This document shows positions 4,569 to 43,116 of a stretch of 64,000 bases of DNA, piece by piece. The stretch comes from Candidatus Latescibacterota bacterium (lineage in GTDB: Bacteria; Latescibacterota; UBA2968; GCA-2709665). The translations under genes were made by a program, and so were the position numbers. The stretch is taken from contig OZ244937.1 of NCBI GenBank assembly GCA_965222075.1, positions 544,001-608,000 of the forward strand. The letters run 5' to 3'. The notes beneath the pieces are model-generated. The model was not told the origin of the DNA. It saw only the letters and a program-made list of their open reading frames with translations, and searched no databases. The first letter of the stretch is position 1. Each line of letters begins with the position of its first letter.

Positions 4569-5280
4569 TTATTTGTTCGGTTCGCTACAAGCCGCATACC
4601 TGCATATCTCGGAAGTGTCTGGATTTGCTACGTTTCGTCCGTCCACCCACCGCCTGGCCGACTTCGACCCCGCACGCGCCTGCCTGCGCGGCGCACCGCG
4701 CTGCAGGCAGGCCGCATACTGCCATTCGGCCGCACTCGGCAAGCGATGAGAGGAGCCCGTCTCCTTCGACAGCCACTCCGCGTATGCCATGGCGTCGCCA
4801 ACACTCACGCAGACCACAGGGTGTTTGTCTGTTTGACCATATCCCGGACGTTTCCACGTTAGTCCAGACTTTTTCCGATAATAAGAGGTCTCAGGCGCCT
4901 GGCAACCATATTTAGGTTTGCGCTCCGCTTCGGTGTTATAGCGAGTCGCCTTGACGAACCTGCCGAACTCCGCTCTGGTCACTTCATACCTGGATATTGC
5001 GAAAGGCCCATGTTCACCCATTCGTAAGGCTCTACTCCCTCGTAGAGAAAACGACCGCTGGGAATCTTCACCATCTCAGGTCCCAGCCCGCCCGATTTCA
5101 GACGATCCCGCGGAACGACTGTTTTTGCCGCTTCAACTTGCCGCATCTCCAGGGCTTCCGTGTAATGCGCGCCCTCCTGTCCTGTCACCTTCAGATAGCT
5201 GTATATACGTTCTACAACGGCGCCGTACCCCGTTTCTTTCTGTCCATTCTCCAAATCACGATCCGCCTCTCGCATTAACA
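4569..5280 (-). pseudogene. FGE-sulfatase (SUMF1-like) domain gene, frameshifted and truncated
   Basis: GPEMVKIPSGRF in one frame; FAISRYEVT...HPVVCVS..DA.AY.EWLS..TG...RLPSAAEWQYA in another; C-terminal half missing; carries a 33-nt palindrome insertion. Confidence 0.8.
4679..4711. repeat. CCTGCCTGC...GCAGGCAGG palindromic element (33 nt, in frame)
   Basis: Removing it restores the canonical EWQYAARAG. Confidence 0.9.
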
Positions 5281-8775: not shown

Positions 8776-8987
8776 GAAGCTGTTTTAAAAAGGTAGAGGC
8801 GTAAAGAAAAAAGTTGAAATTGCGTATTCATCTATCCAAATTCAGGTTGTCCCAAACCACCTGAAACGAAAGGATAAAGATGAATACGCAGAGGCAATAT
8901 CCAACAAATTTGACCGAAACACAATGGCAACTTCTCCTCACGCTGCTGCCCAAACCCAAATGGCGTTTCGGCTGTCCTGGTCGCCCA

Positions 8988-10214: not shown

Positions 10215-11855
10215 GTGCGTAAGCGGATCGCGACTTTTGCCGTTATCGCCATCGCGCTTTTGATTCATCCGCTATCTCATTCTGGGGCAATTGTTTCGTC
10301 ACAATCCGACCTGCCTGCGCCGGATGCCCTGCCTGCGCCGAGTGCTCGGCAGGCAGGTCGGCAGGCAGGTCGGCAGGCAGGCCCGAGTCCCGACTTTAAT
10401 GGGGATGGTGTTGTGAATTTTAACGACTTTGTGCAGTTTGCGGGCGTGTTCGGTTCAAGCCGAGGGGGTGGGACGTATGAAGCGAAGTACGATCTGGATA
10501 GCGATGGCATGATTGGATTTTCAGATTTTGTGATCTTTGCCGGCAACTTCGGCAAAGCGGTGAACCGCCTGCCTCGTCGGCAGACAGGCATAAATGCCTT
10601 TGATTTTCCGCTGCGCGCCATCTCCGCCGCGGGGAATTGGGGAACCAATGCGCAAGTTGTAGCAGAGTGGGAAGCTGCCGGGAGGGTCGGACCTCTCATA
10701 CCTCCGGAGTATATTGAATGGCTGAAGAGCCTGCATGTGAACTGGATCTTACTCTCCGTCGCTCTGCATTACGAAGACAGCATGGACAGCACGGTTGAGC
10801 GTAACTATTCAGCGGATATAGATATCTCTACTTTTTCGGATAAAGCTCTCAGACAGCTTATACGGGAATTCAGAGTTCACGGAATTGACGTGTATCTGAC
10901 CCTCGCATTCGAAGCCCATGAGGCGGAAACAGCCGCACGCCCGGTACAAAGGTGGCAACTTGGAGACCCGGCACCACCTCACACGGGCGGCGTTCCTCCT
11001 GACGATCCCGACATCTTCGGATTGATATTACCACAATTTTGGCCGTGGCGTCCGGATCACCCGGATCACGAACGTTTTGTCGCCGAGTTCTGGGAGACCT
11101 ATACACAACAGGCGGTACATTTCGCCAGAATCGCAGAGGATGAGGGGGTGCGATTGTACTCGTTGGGCACGGAGACTGATCGGCTTTTTCGAACGCGTTC
11201 AGGAGGCTATATGACCAATGATTTCGGTCAGGAACTCAGATCAATGGTGGAGAGAGTGCGTGCCGTGTACAGTGGCGTGTTGACCTATGACACGCACTAT
11301 GACGTATTCACAGCGTCCGACTTCTATGGACCGGGGTCGGGAGCAGGTCATCTATGGAAAGATTTGGATCTCGACATCGTGGGGATCAGTGCATGGTTTC
11401 CACTGACGGACTCGCGTCCGTCAACGGTACTGAGCGTCGAAAGTTTCCAGGCGAGTTATAGGCAGATATTCCAAAACCAGCTTATTCCTCTTGCGGACAG
11501 AAATCCCGACCGGCCCATTGTGTTTACCGAATATGGTGCTATGGATGTGGTTGAAACACCCGAAAGACCAGGTGATACATCAGCGCAAAACCGGCGATTC
11601 GTATTTACCGATTCGAACGGCAACGGGCTGGATGACGGGCGGGAAACTCAGGCCAACATCTATGAGGCCTTAATCAACACCATGGCTCAGTACCCTGGGA
11701 TAGTAAATGGTGTCTTCTATTGGGATAATTGGATAACCAGCGACGAACTGTGGGCGGGATACTGGGCAGGTCGGCGTACTTATGCTATTCGTGACAAGCC
11801 GGCTGAGGAGGTCGTGCGGTCAGCTTATGGGTCCTACATAAAAACGAAAAATTGA
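10215..11855 (+). CDS. Secreted dockerin/EF-hand plus glycoside hydrolase TIM barrel (GH113-like)
   Basis: Signal peptide; DFNGDGVVNFNDF; SLGTETD, VRAVYSGVLTY, DIVGISAWFPL, IVFTEYG, DKPAEEVVR motifs. Confidence 0.8.
   Translation: MRKRIATFAVIAIALLIHPLSHSGAIVSSQSDLPAPDALPAPSARQAGRQAGRQAGPSPDFNGDGVVNFNDFVQFAGVFGSSRGGGTYEAKYDLDSDGMIGFSDFVIFAGNFGKAVNRLPRRQTGINAFDFPLRAISAAGNWGTNAQVVAEWEAAGRVGPLIPPEYIEWLKSLHVNWILLSVALHYEDSMDSTVERNYSADIDISTFSDKALRQLIREFRVHGIDVYLTLAFEAHEAETAARPVQRWQLGDPAPPHTGGVPPDDPDIFGLILPQFWPWRPDHPDHERFVAEFWETYTQQAVHFARIAEDEGVRLYSLGTETDRLFRTRSGGYMTNDFGQELRSMVERVRAVYSGVLTYDTHYDVFTASDFYGPGSGAGHLWKDLDLDIVGISAWFPLTDSRPSTVLSVESFQASYRQIFQNQLIPLADRNPDRPIVFTEYGAMDVVETPERPGDTSAQNRRFVFTDSNGNGLDDGRETQANIYEALINTMAQYPGIVNGVFYWDNWITSDELWAGYWAGRRTYAIRDKPAEEVVRSAYGSYIKTKN
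10310..10381. repeat. Nested palindromic elements (30+30 nt plus a 12-nt arm duplication), in frame
   Basis: Encodes LPAPDALPAPSARQAGRQAGRQAG between the signal peptide and the dockerin domain. Confidence 0.88.
10568..10588. repeat. Short variant palindromic element (21 nt, in frame)
   Basis: CCTGCCTCGTCGGCAGACAGG in the linker after the dockerin domain. Confidence 0.75.
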
Positions 11856-12107: not shown

Positions 12108-12815
12108 TCAAGGGGTAAGCGTCCGGGCAATACGGAAACCGATGACGGCTGAACCGTCCGCCGGAGGAGACCCTGTCGCGGTACGCGGCGCGGAGGTCCT
12201 CGGGTAGTCGAACCACGAGCCGCCGCGCAACACGCGACGCGCACAGTCGCCGCTCTCCCAGGCCGAGCCGTCCGCCGCCGCGCCTCGGTAACTGGCGTGC
12301 CAGCAGTCCTGCACCCACTCCCACACGTTGCCGTGCATGTCATGAAGTCCCCACGCGTTGGCACCGAACGCACCCACCGGCGCCGTCTTCTTACCGCCCC
12401 ACTGACTGCCGCAACCATCGCAATTGGCCCGGCCCTGGCCAATCTCATTCCCCCAGCTATACGCCGTCACCGACCCCGCACGCAACGCATACTCCCACTC
12501 CGCCTCGCTCGGCAAACGGTAACGCAGGTCCGTCTCCACCGACAGCCACTCCGTATACGCCACCGCATCCTCCCACGAAACGTTGATCACCGGACGCCGC
12601 CCACGGCCCCAGCCTGCGTCGTCCATCCGCTCTCTACTCGTCGCCGCCGTGAAGCGATCGTACTCCTCGAACGTCACCTCGTACTTCGACAGCGCGAACG
12701 ACCCAACCGTCACCTCGTGCACCGGCTTCTCGTCGCCAGCACAGTCTTTACCCGACACGCAGCCCATCCGAAAACGGCCCGCAGGAATCACCACCATCTC
12801 AGGCTCAAGCGGCAT
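12108..12815 (-). CDS. FGE-sulfatase/C-type-lectin-fold DGR-type target 2 (probably the split C-terminal part of the upstream kinase gene)
   Basis: PEMVVIPAGRFRMG, RLPSEAEWEYA, WGLHDMHGNVWEW, RVLRGGSW...GFRIARTLTP; 3' flank shared with target 1. Confidence 0.85.
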   Translation of the reverse strand: MPLEPEMVVIPAGRFRMGCVSGKDCAGDEKPVHEVTVGSFALSKYEVTFEEYDRFTAATSRERMDDAGWGRGRRPVINVSWEDAVAYTEWLSVETDLRYRLPSEAEWEYALRAGSVTAYSWGNEIGQGRANCDGCGSQWGGKKTAPVGAFGANAWGLHDMHGNVWEWVQDCWHASYRGAAADGSAWESGDCARRVLRGGSWFDYPRTSAPRTATGSPPADGSAVIGFRIARTLTP

Positions 12816-12850
12816 CTGTGGTCACCCTTGCTCTTTCGGCTTCTGTGCAG

Positions 12851-14146
12851 TCACTTGCCTTGCTCTGCTTTCGCTCTTGCTTCTTGCTCTTGACGACGCT
12901 CTTGCTCTTGACGACGCTGCTCAGCCTGTTCTTGACGACGCTGCTTTTCGGGTAGATATTCATATTCATAATAGTATAGCCCCCCAACAAGATAGTATAG
13001 CCCCCCAACAAGGAGAGCAACCATGCATACAACCGCCGCAAGCCACTTCCCTTTGCGCTTTTTGGGAGAACCCGACCAGGCGTCGTCACGCTGATGCACG
13101 GGTGGGGCATCTACTCTCTCTCGTTCCTGTGCAAACGTTGTGACTAATCCCCTGGCAAACAACGGCAACCGGGCGTCGTCACGCTGATGCACGGGTGGGG
13201 CATCTACTATCTCTCGTTCCTGTGCAGACGCTGTGACTGGCGGCGGAATGTTCACGCTGCCTGATGTTTCTCCAGACAGCGCAGGACGCCATGAAGCCAC
13301 ACTTTGCGGGCGGGCAGCCTTATCCATTTGCAGGGCTTTATCTATCGCAGAAAGAAACCCAGCACTCGCTTGACCCGCGCAGCGCTCAGACACTGGAATC
13401 AGCGGGTCCTGGATTACTCTTTCCGTGGCGTCGTCGGGCACTTGACCAGTCAACGCCCGGTAGCACACGGCCCCCAATGCGTAGATGTCTGTCCAGGGCC
13501 CTTGATCACCCCGACTCGAATACTGCTCTATCGGCGCGTAACCCGGCGTGATAATCGACGTAACAGAACGGCTCTTAGCACCGATCGCCTGACGCGCCGC
13601 ACCAAAGTCCAGCAACACAGGTGAATTGTCCTCATCCCGAATGATGATGTTGCCCGGCTTGATGTCACGGTGCAGGAAATCGGCACGATGTACCACCTCA
13701 AGGCCATCCAGGATCGGATACAGAATGGCCTTGAGTTCGGCTTCGCTCAGCGTCCCTTTGCGTGCGAGGAATGCCGATAAGGTTTCGCCCTCGGCATACT
13801 CCATCACGATATACGCCGTGCCATGCGCCTCAAAAAAGCGATACACTTTAATAATGTGGCGATGATCGAAGCGGGCTAAGGTGCGTGCTTCATCTAAGAA
13901 ACGACCCAGTCCCCACTCAAAATCATCTCGAAACTGGCTGGCTTGCGGGGCAACGCTGTTGTCGCCTGTACGGGTGGCGATATCGGCGGGCAGGTATTCC
14001 TTAATGGCCACGGCTTTGTCCAGGTTGTGGTCAAAGCCCAGATACGTCATCCCGAATCCGCCAAAGCCCAGCACCCTCACCAGTTCGTATTCCTGGAGAC
14101 GGTACCCCTGGGGCAGCGCGTTGAGGGGGTGGTGTGCGTCGTTCAT
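12851..14146 (-). CDS. Ser/Thr protein kinase with TM helix and coiled coil (paralog of 16579..18993, separated from its FGE domain by stops/frameshift)
   Basis: LGFGGFG, VAIKEY, HRDIKPGN, DFG, GYAPIE; start MNDAHH with RBS. Confidence 0.88.
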   Translation of the reverse strand: MNDAHHPLNALPQGYRLQEYELVRVLGFGGFGMTYLGFDHNLDKAVAIKEYLPADIATRTGDNSVAPQASQFRDDFEWGLGRFLDEARTLARFDHRHIIKVYRFFEAHGTAYIVMEYAEGETLSAFLARKGTLSEAELKAILYPILDGLEVVHRADFLHRDIKPGNIIIRDEDNSPVLLDFGAARQAIGAKSRSVTSIITPGYAPIEQYSSRGDQGPWTDIYALGAVCYRALTGQVPDDATERVIQDPLIPVSERCAGQASAGFLSAIDKALQMDKAARPQSVASWRPALSGETSGSVNIPPPVTASAQEREIVDAPPVHQRDDARLPLFARGLVTTFAQERERVDAPPVHQRDDAWSGSPKKRKGKWLAAVVCMVALLVGGLYYLVGGLYYYEYEYLPEKQRRQEQAEQRRQEQERRQEQEARAKAEQGK

Positions 14147-14188
14147 AGTGTTTCCCTCAAAGGGTTCTTCTCTTGTGTGTTCATCCCC

Positions 14189-14325
14189 GTGCGGACGAGG
14201 ACCTGCCTGCCGGGTCGCCTGCCTGCGCGGAGTTCTGCTCGGCAGGCAGGGCGCAGGCAGGCGTCCGCGCTCCCAGGTTGGCATGGCGCACTCAAACCAT
14301 GCGGGCGAGGACGCCCGCGTTCCCA
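14189..14325 (-). repeat. REP-like hairpin pair (GGGARCGCGGRCGTCCTCGYCCGC), one copy carrying a 60-nt nested insertion
   Basis: Same pair without the insertion at 19037-19113. Confidence 0.7.
14202..14261. repeat. Nested palindromic elements (27+33 nt)
   Basis: Absent at the paralogous position 19047/19048. Confidence 0.92.
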
Positions 14326-14331
14326 GGGAGG

Positions 14332-14495
14332 TTAATCTTTCGCTCTTTCTTCCGTATCCTGCCAATCGAACGCGTCGCCGCACAGGGGCACGAACCGGAG
14401 AACCGTTGCGCCAATGCTGATATGGCTATGCGCGGGCAGTTCCGTCGGAATGAGCACGGGCTGGTCGTTGAGGTAGGTCAGGTTGGTGCCGCTCC
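14332..14495 (-). pseudogene. Duplicated 3' fragment of the FHA-domain gene
   Basis: GTNLTYLNDQPVLIPTELPAHSHISIGATVLRFVPLCGDAFDW, paralogous to 19118-19280. Confidence 0.8.
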
Positions 14496-14497
14496 CT

Positions 14498-14827
14498 TCA
14501 TTCGTTGGGTTGAGCGGAAAGTTTAACTTCGATATTGCAGTGAAGTTTGTCTTGAAGAATGAAAAGAATATGCGTGAGATTATCCATTGTAGGATTTCCT
14601 TTTGACGACAACATACGATGGACACTCTTGCTGGGCTTATCGAGCTCTTTTGCCAATAATTCAAAACCAATCGTTGAATTTACGAGTTCCCGAAGAACAA
14701 GACGGGCAGTTTCAGAATCCCCGCTTAAAAAAGATGAAACGGCTTCATTCATTAGAGATGCAGCAAAATCAGGATCTCTTTCTGCCCTTTCTCTAATTGT
14801 CTGCCTGTAGTCGCGTGTCAGTGCCAT
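14498..14827 (-). CDS. Addiction-module antitoxin / HTH regulator (HI1420-like)
   Basis: [22 protein letters not shown]...[22 protein letters not shown]; GGAG RBS. Confidence 0.8.
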
Positions 14828-15001
14828 GTTTATCTCCTGCGATTTGTATTCTTTCATCATCTCTCCGGCTTTCGCAATATCCCTTTGTTGGCGGTCTTTT
14901 GTGCCGCCTCCCAGCAATACGATAAGGTCGTCACCATCCTGGAGTAAATAGATTCGATATCCTGGACCCCAATCAATTTTGTATTCTCCAAGCCCTGGCA
15001 A
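14828..15001 (-). pseudogene. C-terminal half of an addiction-module killer toxin (RelE/ParE-like, HI1419 type)
   Basis: [14 protein letters not shown]...[17 protein letters not shown]; N-terminus missing; reads in frame into the antitoxin. Confidence 0.75.
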
Positions 15002-16015
15002 TCAGGTCGTGGTGTCTGATTGTGTTGACGACTGCGTCGGGGCGTCTCGATTTTTTTCTTCTAGCGGTTCCCCACTGATTTTGCCTGTCTCGATTCGTCT
15101 TGATTGCTGACCGGGTGACGCTGTCAGCGCTTTCTTCAAGGCAGACCAAAGCCCTGACAGGCCTGTTTCCCGTCTTGATGGCTGAGTCTCTTCGCCCTGT
15201 TTGGATTTCTCCTGGGCGGTATCATCGGGAAGCGTTTCCACCCCACAATCGGCCTCCGGAGTGTAGAGCAACACGGTGGTATTGTCCTGGTGGGGATGTC
15301 CGACCTCTTCCACGGCATGGATGAGTGCCCCGGTGACTTCTTCAAGGGGTGCGTCCTGCATGTCCTGTAGAATACGCGCAATCTCCTCATCCTCAAGCGT
15401 CATTAAACCATCACTCGCCAATAACAGACGATCGCTTTTTCGAACGGCAACCGGTTGCGATGAAATGTCAATCAGGTGGATTTCATCGCCCATGACCGCA
15501 GACCGCAGGGCATGCCGTTTGGAATCGGTCGCGGCTTCTTCTGCGGTCATGCGCCCCGCCGCCACCAGGCTGGCGAGCACCGGCGCCATGGAGTGATCGG
15601 CATTGAGGCGGCGCAACTGCCCGTCACGGAACAACCACAAGGGGGAATCCCCCACACTGATCCAGTCGAGTCCGTGTTGTGAAATGACCGCTGCGACCAC
15701 GGTTGACCCCATGCCCTTCAGTTCAGGATTATCCTCGGTAGCCCGGGCAAGGGCATCATTGGCGGCGGTGAGGCAGGCGCGCAGACGATCCGGGACTGGC
15801 CCGTCCGTGCGGGGATAGGTCTCGACAAAGGTCTTGACAACGGTCCTGCTGGCCGTGTCGCCGCTGACGTGCCCGCCCATCCCATCGGCTAACAACAACA
15901 CCTCACTGCCGTCAATATCGGGATCGCCGCGCTCAATCAGGCCGTAATCGTCCTCCTGATATTCCCGCCCACCGGGAATTTGCCGCGCGGCGAATCGTCC
16001 TTCCAATCGGTTCAT
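15002..16015 (-). CDS. PP2C-family Ser/Thr phosphatase
   Basis: GGREYQED, LADGMGGH, GMGST, VGDS, DHS, LLASDGL, QDNTT. Confidence 0.93.
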   Translation of the reverse strand: MNRLEGRFAARQIPGGREYQEDDYGLIERGDPDIDGSEVLLLADGMGGHVSGDTASRTVVKTFVETYPRTDGPVPDRLRACLTAANDALARATEDNPELKGMGSTVVAAVISQHGLDWISVGDSPLWLFRDGQLRRLNADHSMAPVLASLVAAGRMTAEEAATDSKRHALRSAVMGDEIHLIDISSQPVAVRKSDRLLLASDGLMTLEDEEIARILQDMQDAPLEEVTGALIHAVEEVGHPHQDNTTVLLYTPEADCGVETLPDDTAQEKSKQGEETQPSRRETGLSGLWSALKKALTASPGQQSRRIETGKISGEPLEEKNRDAPTQSSTQSDTTT

Positions 16016-16082
16016 GGTGTTCCTCCAATACGGCGCAGGGCTGCTGCCGTCTCATTGGCATTGTATGCCATCACAAAGTGCA

Positions 16083-16126
16083 GCGGTGTCCCTTCCCCAC
16101 AGGCGCGAGGCAAAAGGGACACCGCC
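16083..16126 (-). other. GC-rich hairpin at the end of the spacer downstream of the TR
   Basis: GCGGTGTCCCTT ... AAGGGACACCGC inverted repeat. Confidence 0.55.
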
Positions 16127-16209
16127 CTTACCTCATCATGACCGTCCCTGGACGCTCCGTTGCACACCCGGCAACACCGTAGTGCTGCCCGTTCTGGCAG
16201 ACGAGCGTG

Positions 16210-16323
16210 CGGGCAACTCGAAAACCCCTATTGTTGTTCCGGTTTTCGATCCTGTTCCTGTTGCGATTGGCCGAGCGGAGGTTCCTCGGTTTGTTGTTCC
16301 ACGAACCGCCACGCAACACGCGC
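16210..16323 (-). mobile_element. DGR template repeat (TR), 114 nt
   Basis: Gap-free alignment to 16595-16708; 16 mismatches at TR adenines and 2 elsewhere; conceptual translation RVLRGGSWNNKPRNLRSANRNRNRIENRNNNRGFRVAR is rich in AAC/AAT. Confidence 0.95.
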
Positions 16324-16512
16324 TCAGGAGGGACGATCAGGCTTCCAAAGCGGATCGAACCACCCGCCTCGAAAGATCGCATGGCGCAACCGCCATGTAT
16401 TGGCATGATCACGCTCGACCGTCGGGACCAACCAGACGAGAAAACGAAAGTGCGACTCCAGCGCCGGGCCTTCCCGGATTGAGGCTACCCGCAACGGGCG
16501 GGTGGTTAGCAT
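16324..16512 (-). pseudogene. Fused avd-5' / reverse-transcriptase-3' stub (internal deletion of the DGR core)
   Basis: GPALESHFRFLVWLVPTVER (Avd-like N-terminus) joined at about 16410 to HANTWRLRHAIFRGGWFDP (DGR RT-like C-terminal tail, from recall); stop abuts the TR. Confidence 0.65.
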
Positions 16513-16527
16513 GCCCTGGCCGGATCG

Positions 16528-16550
16528 CCAGGAGGGCGAAGCCCCCCTGG
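16528..16550. promoter_or_regulatory. DGR target-recognition hairpin downstream of VR/IMH
   Basis: CCAGGAGGGC-GAA-GCCCCCCTGG about 28 nt past the target stop codon; GRA triloop as in characterised DGRs. Confidence 0.75.
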
Positions 16551-16578
16551 ACCCCCCAGGAGGTAAAGAGGTGAAGAT

Positions 16579-34288: not shown

Positions 34289-34321
34289 CCTGCCTGCCGC
34301 GACGCTCGCGGCGCAGGCAGG
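34289..34321. repeat. Palindromic element (33 nt, intergenic)
   Basis: CCTGCCTGCCGCGACGCTCGCGGCGCAGGCAGG. Confidence 0.9.
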
Positions 34322-42079: not shown

Positions 42080-43116
42080 GGACAGGGCATTCCGGCTGGT
42101 GGCGTGACCTGCCTGCGCCGTGCCTTGCTCGGCAGGCAGGGCTGCGTCTGCTGGATCTGCCCCTTGCGGGGAGGCAGAGACAGGCCGGGATGGTTCTGAT
42201 CTTTTGCCTTGTCATTTTCCTTCCTTTCAGCCTCTCTGCCCAGGGATGGTCCGAGCACCGGGCCGATGGCCTTCTGCTCCGGTTTCAGGAGCCCGACCGC
42301 GCGCTGGCCGGTGCGCTGTTAGGCGATTTGATTGCAGGGCGGGCGGAGATCGCGCGCAGGCTGGGGGGGGTCGCCCAGGTCCCCATAGCCGTGTACCTGG
42401 CCCCTTCGGAGGAGGTATTCAGGGCGCTGACGGGGGGACGAATTCCCCACTGGGGGGTGGGTTGCGCGTTTCCCGAAGCGGGGATCGTCGTGCTGCGGAA
42501 GCTGCCGGGACAGCCCGATGCGCTTCTACTTACCGCCCGGCATGAGATCTGCCACATTTTGCTGCACCACGCTGTGCCGGGAAGGGTGCCGGTCTGGTTC
42601 AACGAAGGGGTGGCGATGTGGGGCGCCCAGGAGTGGCGGTTGCGTCAGAGCGCCGAGGTCTTCTACGCGATGTTTTCGGGAGGGCTCGTTCCGCTTTCCG
42701 AGATTGAGGACGTGCTCAGCTTTTCATCGTCCCGGGCGCACCTGGCCTATACCGAGAGCCTCCTGGCCGTGGTCTATCTGATCCACTTGGGGGGGCCCGA
42801 TGCGGTGGGCCGGATGATTGCGGACCTGAGTTCCGGCACCCCGTTTGACGTTGCCCTCTACCGTGTAACCGGCTACACGCCCCGGCGGTTTGAAAAGATG
42901 TGGGCCGATTACGTGTGGGGGCGGTTCAGTCTGATATCGCTGATGATTGCTCCGGAGGCGCTCTGGTTTTACCTGGCGCTTCTCTTTTTGGCCGCCTATG
43001 TGGCCGTGCGCTACCGCAACCGGCGTACCGTGCGGCGCTGGGAAGACGAGGGCCCTGCAGAGGTCCTGCCCCTGCGGTTGCGCCTTCAGGTCCACCGGCG
43101 GGAGGACCGGCTGTGA
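42076..43116 (+). CDS. Peptidase MA-like metallohydrolase, membrane anchored
   Basis: HEICH...VPVWFNEG; C-terminal TM; start uncertain. Confidence 0.8.
   Translation: MRTGHSGWWRDLPAPCLARQAGLRLLDLPLAGRQRQAGMVLIFCLVIFLPFSLSAQGWSEHRADGLLLRFQEPDRALAGALLGDLIAGRAEIARRLGGVAQVPIAVYLAPSEEVFRALTGGRIPHWGVGCAFPEAGIVVLRKLPGQPDALLLTARHEICHILLHHAVPGRVPVWFNEGVAMWGAQEWRLRQSAEVFYAMFSGGLVPLSEIEDVLSFSSSRAHLAYTESLLAVVYLIHLGGPDAVGRMIADLSSGTPFDVALYRVTGYTPRRFEKMWADYVWGRFSLISLMIAPEALWFYLALLFLAAYVAVRYRNRRTVRRWEDEGPAEVLPLRLRLQVHRREDRL
42108..42140. repeat. Palindromic element (33 nt, in frame)
   Basis: CCTGCCTGCGCCGTGCCTTGCTCGGCAGGCAGG. Confidence 0.88.

Follow-up and report, generated by a model that had tools for sequence, protein, structure and literature searches.

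How did a block of 60 nt come to interrupt the loop of a small hairpin upstream of one kinase gene, when the hairpin at the paralogous position upstream of a second kinase gene is intact? Here, we address this question in a window of 64,000 nt, by which we mean the whole stretch of DNA that was analyzed (positions 544,001 to 608,000 of contig OZ244937.1, assembly GCA_965222075.1), from a lineage known only from metagenome-assembled genomes titled Candidatus Latescibacterota. Our best explanation, which we consider likely, is that two members of a nonautonomous, REP-like palindrome family make up the 60 nt and that they were inserted. More broadly, the family provides a clear within-genome record of the spread of very small palindromic repeats, with seamless junctions, hairpin-loop targets, and a fixed orientation, where nests accumulate inside other repeats and even inside open reading frames.

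An interrupted and an intact hairpin in duplicated DNA

The insert lies in the spacer that separates a minus-strand Ser/Thr kinase gene from an upstream ORF, with the nest positioned 56 nt upstream of the ATG of kinase gene 1 (Table 1). Here, the window reads GCGGACGAGGA at 14191-14201, followed by the 60-nt insert at 14202-14261 and by CGTCCGCGCTCCC at 14262-14274, whereas the paralogous site at 19037-19060 reads GCGGACGAGGATGTCCGCGCTCCC without interruption. The two copies align by blastn in two segments, 13168-14201 against 18015-19047 (90.3% identity over 1035 columns, with 2 gap openings) and 14263-14490 against 19049-19275 (91.2% identity), and because the flanks align on both sides, the sites at 14202 and at 19047/19048 are homologous. 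It is precisely there that the blastn alignments break, so that the 60-nt block, together with a C/T difference at 14262/19048, represents the sole large indel between the paralogs.

The interrupted structure, which we refer to as host hairpin 1, is REP-like (GCGGACG-AGGA-CGTCCGC), and a second hairpin of the host type starts 23 nt past its GCTCCCAGG tail, or 32 nt past its stem; this hairpin doublet is present in both paralogs. When folded computationally as single-stranded DNA, the filled region forms a nested hairpin of -47.4 kcal/mol (z -3.5), as compared to -23.2 kcal/mol for the empty region. A preliminary description of this DNA had already read the locus as a filled and an empty site in homologous sequence, and the insert as clean, free of target duplication, contained within a REP-like hairpin, and itself a nest. 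All of this is borne out by the sequence and by the blastn alignments of both segments: no bases are duplicated at either border of 14202-14261, the indel lies in the loop of the host hairpin, and the insert resolves into two palindromic units.

Seven public sequencing runs, which come from 4 studies and have word shares between 0.10 and 0.77, match this DNA, and 4 of them were consulted through their Logan contigs. Over window positions 12800-19400, these contigs never skip 14202-14261 and have nothing inserted at 19047/19048, but they break at the repeat, with loose ends at 14217/14218 and 14250, and none of those listed bridges either junction; the 22-nt left flank of the insert matched 0 contigs in a metagenome scan.

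Table 1. Coordinates of the features discussed in the text (window positions)
Feature	Position	Strand	Remark
Duplicated segment, copy 1: kinase gene 5' part, spacer, upstream ORF 3' end	13168..14490	.	blastn
Duplicated segment, copy 2	18015..19275	.	blastn
Ser/Thr protein kinase gene 1, 431 aa	12851..14146	-	Pkinase, E 6e-39
Ser/Thr protein kinase gene 2, fused to FGE-sulfatase domain, 804 aa	16579..18993	-	Pkinase, E 8e-37
Host REP-like hairpin 1, 5' arm and loop (GCGGACG-AGGA), filled copy	14191..14201	+	Identical sequence at 19037-19047
60-nt nest	14202..14261	+	Outer unit plus inner unit
Outer unit (27-nt variant)	14202-14217 plus 14251-14261	+	Solo elsewhere as CCTGCCTGCCGAGTCGGCGCAGGCAGG
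Inner 33-nt unit, B-type	14218..14250	+	One base off (GCGGAG for GCCGAG) from the B-type CCTGCCTGCGCCGAGTTCTGCTCGGCAGGCAGG common to other copies
Host hairpin 1, 3' arm (CGTCCGC) and conserved tail (GCTCCCAGG)	14262..14277	+	
Host-type REP-like hairpin 2, uninterrupted	14301..14327	+	GCGGGCGAGGACGCCCGC plus GTTCCCAGG
Paralogous host hairpin 1, uninterrupted	19037..19063	+	Empty site between 19047 and 19048
Paralogous host hairpin 2, uninterrupted	19087..19113	+	
Family member, 33 nt, A-type	4679..4711	+	
Family member, 33 nt	34289..34321	+	
Family member, 33 nt	42108..42140	+	
Second nest	10310..10381	+	30-nt host unit with B-like insert, then TCGGCAGGCAGG three times in tandem
Empty counterpart TATCCTT^TCGTTTC	8833..8914	-	Filled by a 33-nt unit at genome 931620

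Units and nests across the genome

The 60 nt consist of an outer 27-nt unit into which a 33-nt B-type unit is inserted after outer base 16, where the 27-nt unit corresponds to the B-type minus 6 loop bases. Units of this family follow a common architecture, in which CCTGCCTGC is followed by a GC that stays unpaired, by an inner stem of 4 variable bp that encloses a 5-nt loop, and by GCAGGCAGG, for a basic length of 33 nt and an outer stem of 9 bp with a GC bulge; recurrent interior variants are few and are here named A, B, and C. Whereas 0.92 occurrences would be expected, the window contains the 9-mer arm CCTGCCTGC 18 times, a count reached by 0 of 100 shuffles, and because this count so far exceeds expectation the insert is not a chance palindrome. 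Genome-wide (5.36 Mb), the arm has 233 occurrences and a regular-expression search (arm-spacer-arm) retrieves 113 units, 66 of which are exactly 33 nt (the mode), and the GC asymmetry is common to 107 of the 108 simple units.

The family is dispersed in the genome and patchy among related genomes. Of the 53 genomes of the order, 15 contain the strict 33-nt pattern, and nearly all of these belong to the window's own family. The pattern occurs 76 times in the genome of the window, four further genomes have 75, 67, 65, and 53 occurrences, and several complete sister genomes have none; a reversed-pattern control returned 0 in every genome. A scan for the B-type unit with one genome per species gave 91 stretches, and the 80 matches listed all came from entries titled Candidatus Latescibacterota save two titled Gemmatimonadota. 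We also considered whether roughly 50 identical units in one relative could represent autonomous amplification but do not take them as proof of it, as at the two places inspected the units ride in tandem copies of a larger repeat; high unit counts thus do not all stand for independent insertions.

Units are depleted from ORFs yet far from excluded: when only open frames that run for 200 codons or more and leave 40 codons or more to either side are counted, 47 of 106 units (~44%) lie inside one, vs. 75% of random 33-nt spans, in a stop-to-stop count without gene calling that includes false positives such as the inner unit at 14218-14250, which lies upstream of the kinase ATG. Since unit lengths are mostly multiples of three (33, 30, 27, 36, and 60 nt) and the arms have no stop codons, units can persist in genes. 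One ORF, at G000:C1:318230-319207, which from the look of its sequence we take to encode a transposase, carries two 33-nt units in frame.

Nesting recurs across the genome, with some 30 of 319 arm clusters having three or more arms and 6 forming plain two-in-two nests. The 60-nt composite itself is present, with identical junction and orientation, at genome positions 1741864 and 1823843, both unrelated and nonhairpin contexts and one of them 785 codons inside a 1952-codon open frame; these two sister nests are identical to each other and differ from the window nest at 2 of 60 positions, and the composite is absent from all other genomes of the family searched. The solo 27-nt unit, in turn, is found at four places in the genome, three of them in one tandem array and all in the loops of host-type hairpins.

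It is also important to consider whether such structures could arise without any transposase, either because replication switches templates or slips locally at the hairpin or through gene conversion from another repeat. The unit arms are indeed (CCTG)2/(CAGG)2 repeats, and slippage products exist in the form of 37-nt units with an extra CCTG and of the TCGGCAGGCAGG triplication at 10346-10381, where the tandem copies that follow the second nest of the window suggest slippage in the (CAGG)n arms. Nevertheless, both the inner and the outer unit match family members at dozens of unrelated loci, the conserved GC-bulge asymmetry that self-templated synthesis would erase is retained, and no other host hairpin carries this nest as a possible donor for gene conversion. 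We therefore regard a transposase-free origin of the 60-nt block as very improbable and continue with its insertion as members of a mobile family.

Seamless entry beside hairpin stems

To find further pairs of filled and empty sites, the joined flanks of every unit or nest were used as a query against the genome. Many such pairs emerged genome-wide, and they show that insertion is seamless and without target duplication. They include pairs at GGGCG^CCGCT in a ~180-nt repeat, three of which have 100% identical 80-nt flanks; TATCCTT^TCGTTTC, whose filled site holds a 33-nt unit at genome position 931620; GCGAGA^CGCCCTC; CAACTTT^TGTGGG, where the filled side is another 60-nt nest; and, in a single gene of an FGE-sulfatase family, an insert of 27 nt that keeps the frame. 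The units end in 9-bp inverted repeats, and target-site duplication is absent at all clean pairs listed.

The ~180-nt repeat mentioned above belongs to a family in its own right, which is ~180 nt or longer, has at least 41 copies genome-wide (e.g., G000:C1:2396269-2396521), and starts with the hairpin GGCCTTTTTCTTG...CAAGAAAAAGGCC. It also occurs in tandem in another genus and carries a hot spot for 33-nt units.

Units show a strong preference for unpaired positions beside stems, be it in TCCCAGG-tailed REP-like hairpins, in a GTAG-tagged REP, or in members of their own family. The host hairpin family, recognized by its conserved tail CG[CT]TCCCAGG, has 21 copies in the genome, of which 10 are uninterrupted and 11 interrupted, and all 11 interruptions are found at a single position, the loop/3'-arm junction, with CCTGCCTGC units accounting for 6 and a related CCTGTCTGC type for 5. 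Two paralogous GTAG-tagged REP copies carry a unit at GGTTG^CCCCTAC, and within nests the points of entry adjoin either the inner stem or the GC bulge. Away from nests and REP hosts, flank self-complementarity is not significant (13 of 90 vs. 8.5 +/- 2.6 at random junctions). Across the same number of junctions there is no conserved target tetranucleotide; the flanks do show an R^Y bias, with a purine at -1 in 78 of 90 and a pyrimidine at +1 in 75 of 90, together with a weak YCKG bias. The junctions of clean pairs read A^T/C, G^C, G^G, T^T, and G^T, and B-type units elsewhere in the genome have no target sequence in common.

Entry into the host REP-like hairpin takes place in one fixed orientation. 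A search for 33-nt units abutting the host 3' arm gave 8 matches in 5 of the 22 family genomes, with four different interiors, and all 8 have the same orientation with respect to the hairpin tail. The window nest and the solo 27-mers are oriented like these 8 units; as some copies could be orthologs or paralogs of one another, the independent events are fewer, roughly 5 to 7. With replichores set by GC skew (ori near 4.21 Mb, ter near 1.34 Mb), unit counts of 28+/29- and 25+/25- reveal no bias.

Order and number of events

We propose that a unit or a ready-made 60-nt nest would have integrated between the loop and the 3' arm of the hairpin that lies upstream of kinase gene 1, and that this integration probably postdates duplication of the kinase segment. 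Insertion after duplication is the most parsimonious order because it requires one event, as opposed to two for an insertion before duplication followed by precise loss. The host hairpins are absent from the orthologous spacer in every relative searched: the best spacer homologs, found in 5 genomes of another family of the order, reach 80-85% identity and have spacers without host hairpins, and the locus is unmatched in the only same-genus genome (94% complete, 320 contigs). As no outgroup keeps the host hairpins, the polarity rests on parsimony.

Conversely, the nest could already have resided in hairpin 1 before the duplication and copy 2 could have lost it by precise excision, either enzymatic or through slippage across the hairpin. 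Support for such a history comes from the ~180-nt repeat, where a tree of 32 copies, 7 of them filled (9 of the 41 copies found were left out for length), requires 7 changes of an identical A-type unit on the best tree, and well-supported branches force at least three gains or losses of that unit at one site. This repeated gain and loss fits precise excision as well as it fits hot-spot insertion. The three filled/empty pairs with 100% identical 80-nt flanks point in the same direction, as does the fact that single-strand HUH transposition, as known from IS200/IS605 elements, yields seamless excision. Set against this are the second event that is needed, the lack of any footprint in the empty copy, the further substitution called for by the base after the site (C in the filled copy, T in the empty one), and the low divergence of the nest from its sister nests as compared to that between the paralogs (~9.5%). 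Together, these observations lead us to consider an ancestral filled state unlikely and to retain insertion after duplication.

The preliminary description had placed the insertion after the kinase duplication, counted two insertions, and called them recent. The first of these claims keeps the advantage of fewer steps, tempered by relatives whose spacers have no host hairpins and by the gains and losses in the repeat family, from which precise loss is conceivable. We do not uphold the last: 2 differences in 60 from the sister nests, against ~9-10% between the flanking paralogs, come from too few sites to date the insertion late.

As for the number of events, the balance between one and two is near even. 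Two successive insertions, of a 27-nt unit into the REP-like loop and then of a 33-nt B-type unit into the 27-mer, would be a sub-case of our preferred reading that differs only in event number, and we give it slightly less than an even chance. In its favor, the solo 27-mers all reside in host-type hairpin loops, and paralogs at genome positions 2822676 (outer unit only) and 498469 (outer plus inner) capture stepwise nesting; moreover, another nest type recurs at one position in two variants of its host whose interiors differ at 3 of 11 bases, which suggests position-specific entry. At the same time, the identical 60-nt composite at two unrelated, nonhairpin loci, one of them deep in a 1952-codon frame, argues for arrival in one piece, and since the composite recurs identically and B-type units elsewhere share no common target, copying the nest as a unit needs fewer events. 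The earlier count of two insertions is therefore supported by the stepwise nesting at another paralog pair and weakened by the recurrence of the complete composite.

The search for a mobilizing enzyme

In the mechanism that we put forward tentatively, a unit would move as a folded single strand, with a trans-acting HUH/Y1 (RAYT-like) transposase doing the cutting and rejoining. Such a single-strand enzyme class is favored because it would explain the seamless junctions without target duplication, the hairpin targets, and the strand-specific orientation, and we see it as a possible rather than a probable mobilizer of the family.

A Pfam Y1_Tnp search of the window's own genome returned 2 matches, one intact IS200-type TnpA, which has no flanking units and whose ends are unrelated to them, and one broken Y1 gene with its nearest unit ~10 kb away; matches are present in 15 of 22 family genomes. 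Local tblastn identified two RAYT-like genes in the same genome, at 3242106-3242830 and at about 1858880-1859470. The former sits between two ~140-nt direct repeats carrying GTAGCGCAAAC-type REPs and the latter, near 1859000, carries GTAG-GGGCAACC REPs. The intact gene with its direct ~140-nt blocks and GTAG-tagged REPs (GTAGCGCAAAC...GTTTGCGC), spanning G000:C1:3241494-3242975, has the appearance of a classical REPtron that belongs to a different family.

Uninterrupted TCCCAGG-tailed hairpins, not CCTGCCTGC units, flank a RAYT-like gene in three sister-genus genomes. Because they flank a RAYT-like gene, these hairpins constitute a genuine REP family in the three genomes, and the native state of the host hairpin is uninterrupted. 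In one of the three, a B-type unit directly follows the RAYT-like stop codon, a unit that is absent in another. Among the RAYT-like and Y1 loci inspected, none is flanked on both sides by units, and no candidate transposase gene was found within the unit clusters at 318, 498, 1990, 2826-2831, and 4022 kb. With no inspected RAYT-like locus flanked by CCTGCCTGC units, the family is thus an orphan.

Loci L027 and L028 (genomes G002 and G033) display a RAYT-like domain (HVH motif, NPVKAGL) in frame within a very long ORF, the N terminus of which has the look of a DNA methyltransferase.

A bolder proposal, to which we assign a low probability, would see in the family an orphan "hairpin invader," that is, a single-strand palindrome of 33 nt that lacks its own transposase gene and enters, in a fixed orientation, unpaired positions beside the stems of three REP families and of its own members, and that may hijack the RAYT enzymes of those families as a hyperparasite of REP-RAYT systems. 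If the mobilizing enzyme were named, the family would offer a compact substrate for structure-directed single-strand DNA integration.

Relation to known repeats and insertion sequences

By analogy, the elements appear to work like REPs or Rickettsia palindromic elements (RPEs), and they are a fairly ordinary kind of bacterial repeat. In common with REPs and REPINs, whose RAYT is TnpA_REP, they are imperfect palindromes of 20-40 nt, rich in GC, in which the outer part is conserved whereas the inner stem and the loop vary; they are dispersed in tens to hundreds of copies per genome, patchy among relatives, and without target duplication. They differ in that they have no GTAG or CGTC end tag (their ends are CCTGCCTGCGC... 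and ...GCAGGCAGG), flank no RAYT gene in the genomes inspected, occur singly or nested rather than as inverted doublets with a spacer, and lie in long open frames in ~44% of cases. Passages of the work of Di Nocera and colleagues describe REPs tagged by GTAG or CGTC, REPs within ORFs, and REP families inserted inside small palindromes, with mention of RPEs (PMC3733652); since REPs in ORFs and within small palindromes are reported there, the behavior seen here is of a known kind. The family itself, untagged and without a flanked RAYT, was not met in the literature searched, where, within the full-text set and terms used, neither this family nor REP-like repeats in Latescibacterota are described.

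RPEs, too, are palindromic repeats that persist in frame in protein-coding genes, but they are ~100-150 bp long and unrelated in sequence to the present units, and neither hairpin-loop targeting nor nesting is a known RPE hallmark. Hairpin ends and seamless insertion without target duplication link the units to IS200/IS605 elements and their miniature derivatives (PATEs), which also excise seamlessly and act in a strand-specific manner; the orientation of the units relative to the host hairpin (8 of 8 in 5 genomes, where the copies are not all independent) would fit such an action. IS200/IS605 elements, however, choose sites 3' of a fixed tetra- or pentanucleotide and are oriented preferentially with respect to replication, whereas the present units have neither a fixed target nor a replichore bias, and the genome's only intact IS200-type TnpA has ends of another kind. 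In the face of no fixed target, no replichore bias, and no flanked gene, membership in the standard REP or IS200/IS605 groups is therefore disfavored. IS110/IS1111 insertion sequences, too, are reported to target REP hairpins and to leave no target duplication (PMC1525189, PMC12288879). These are autonomous elements of >1 kb that encode a recombinase, in contrast to noncoding units of 27-33 nt. Finally, the units have terminal inverted repeats but no target-site duplication, which sets them apart from MITEs derived from DDE transposases.

The kinase genes around the nest

No host function is implied for the nest. Its effect on the kinase locus is probably neutral or mildly regulatory, as a strong hairpin is added to a transcribed spacer.

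Kinase 2 is a single 804-aa ORF with a C-terminal FGE-sulfatase domain (window 16579-18993), whereas copy 1 (window 12108-14146) comprises separate kinase (431 aa) and FGE-sulfatase (235 aa) ORFs, so that either a split or a fusion has occurred since duplication. The upstream ORF of copy 2 is one base shorter than that of copy 1 at window 19253-19254; the contigs of three public runs have an extra base there, and the missing base may be either a frameshift or a homopolymer assembly error. For the kinase segment, identity reaches 80-85% with loci in another family of the order but only 74-76% with loci in the window's own family, and this closer match outside the family could stem from transfer or from uneven loss.
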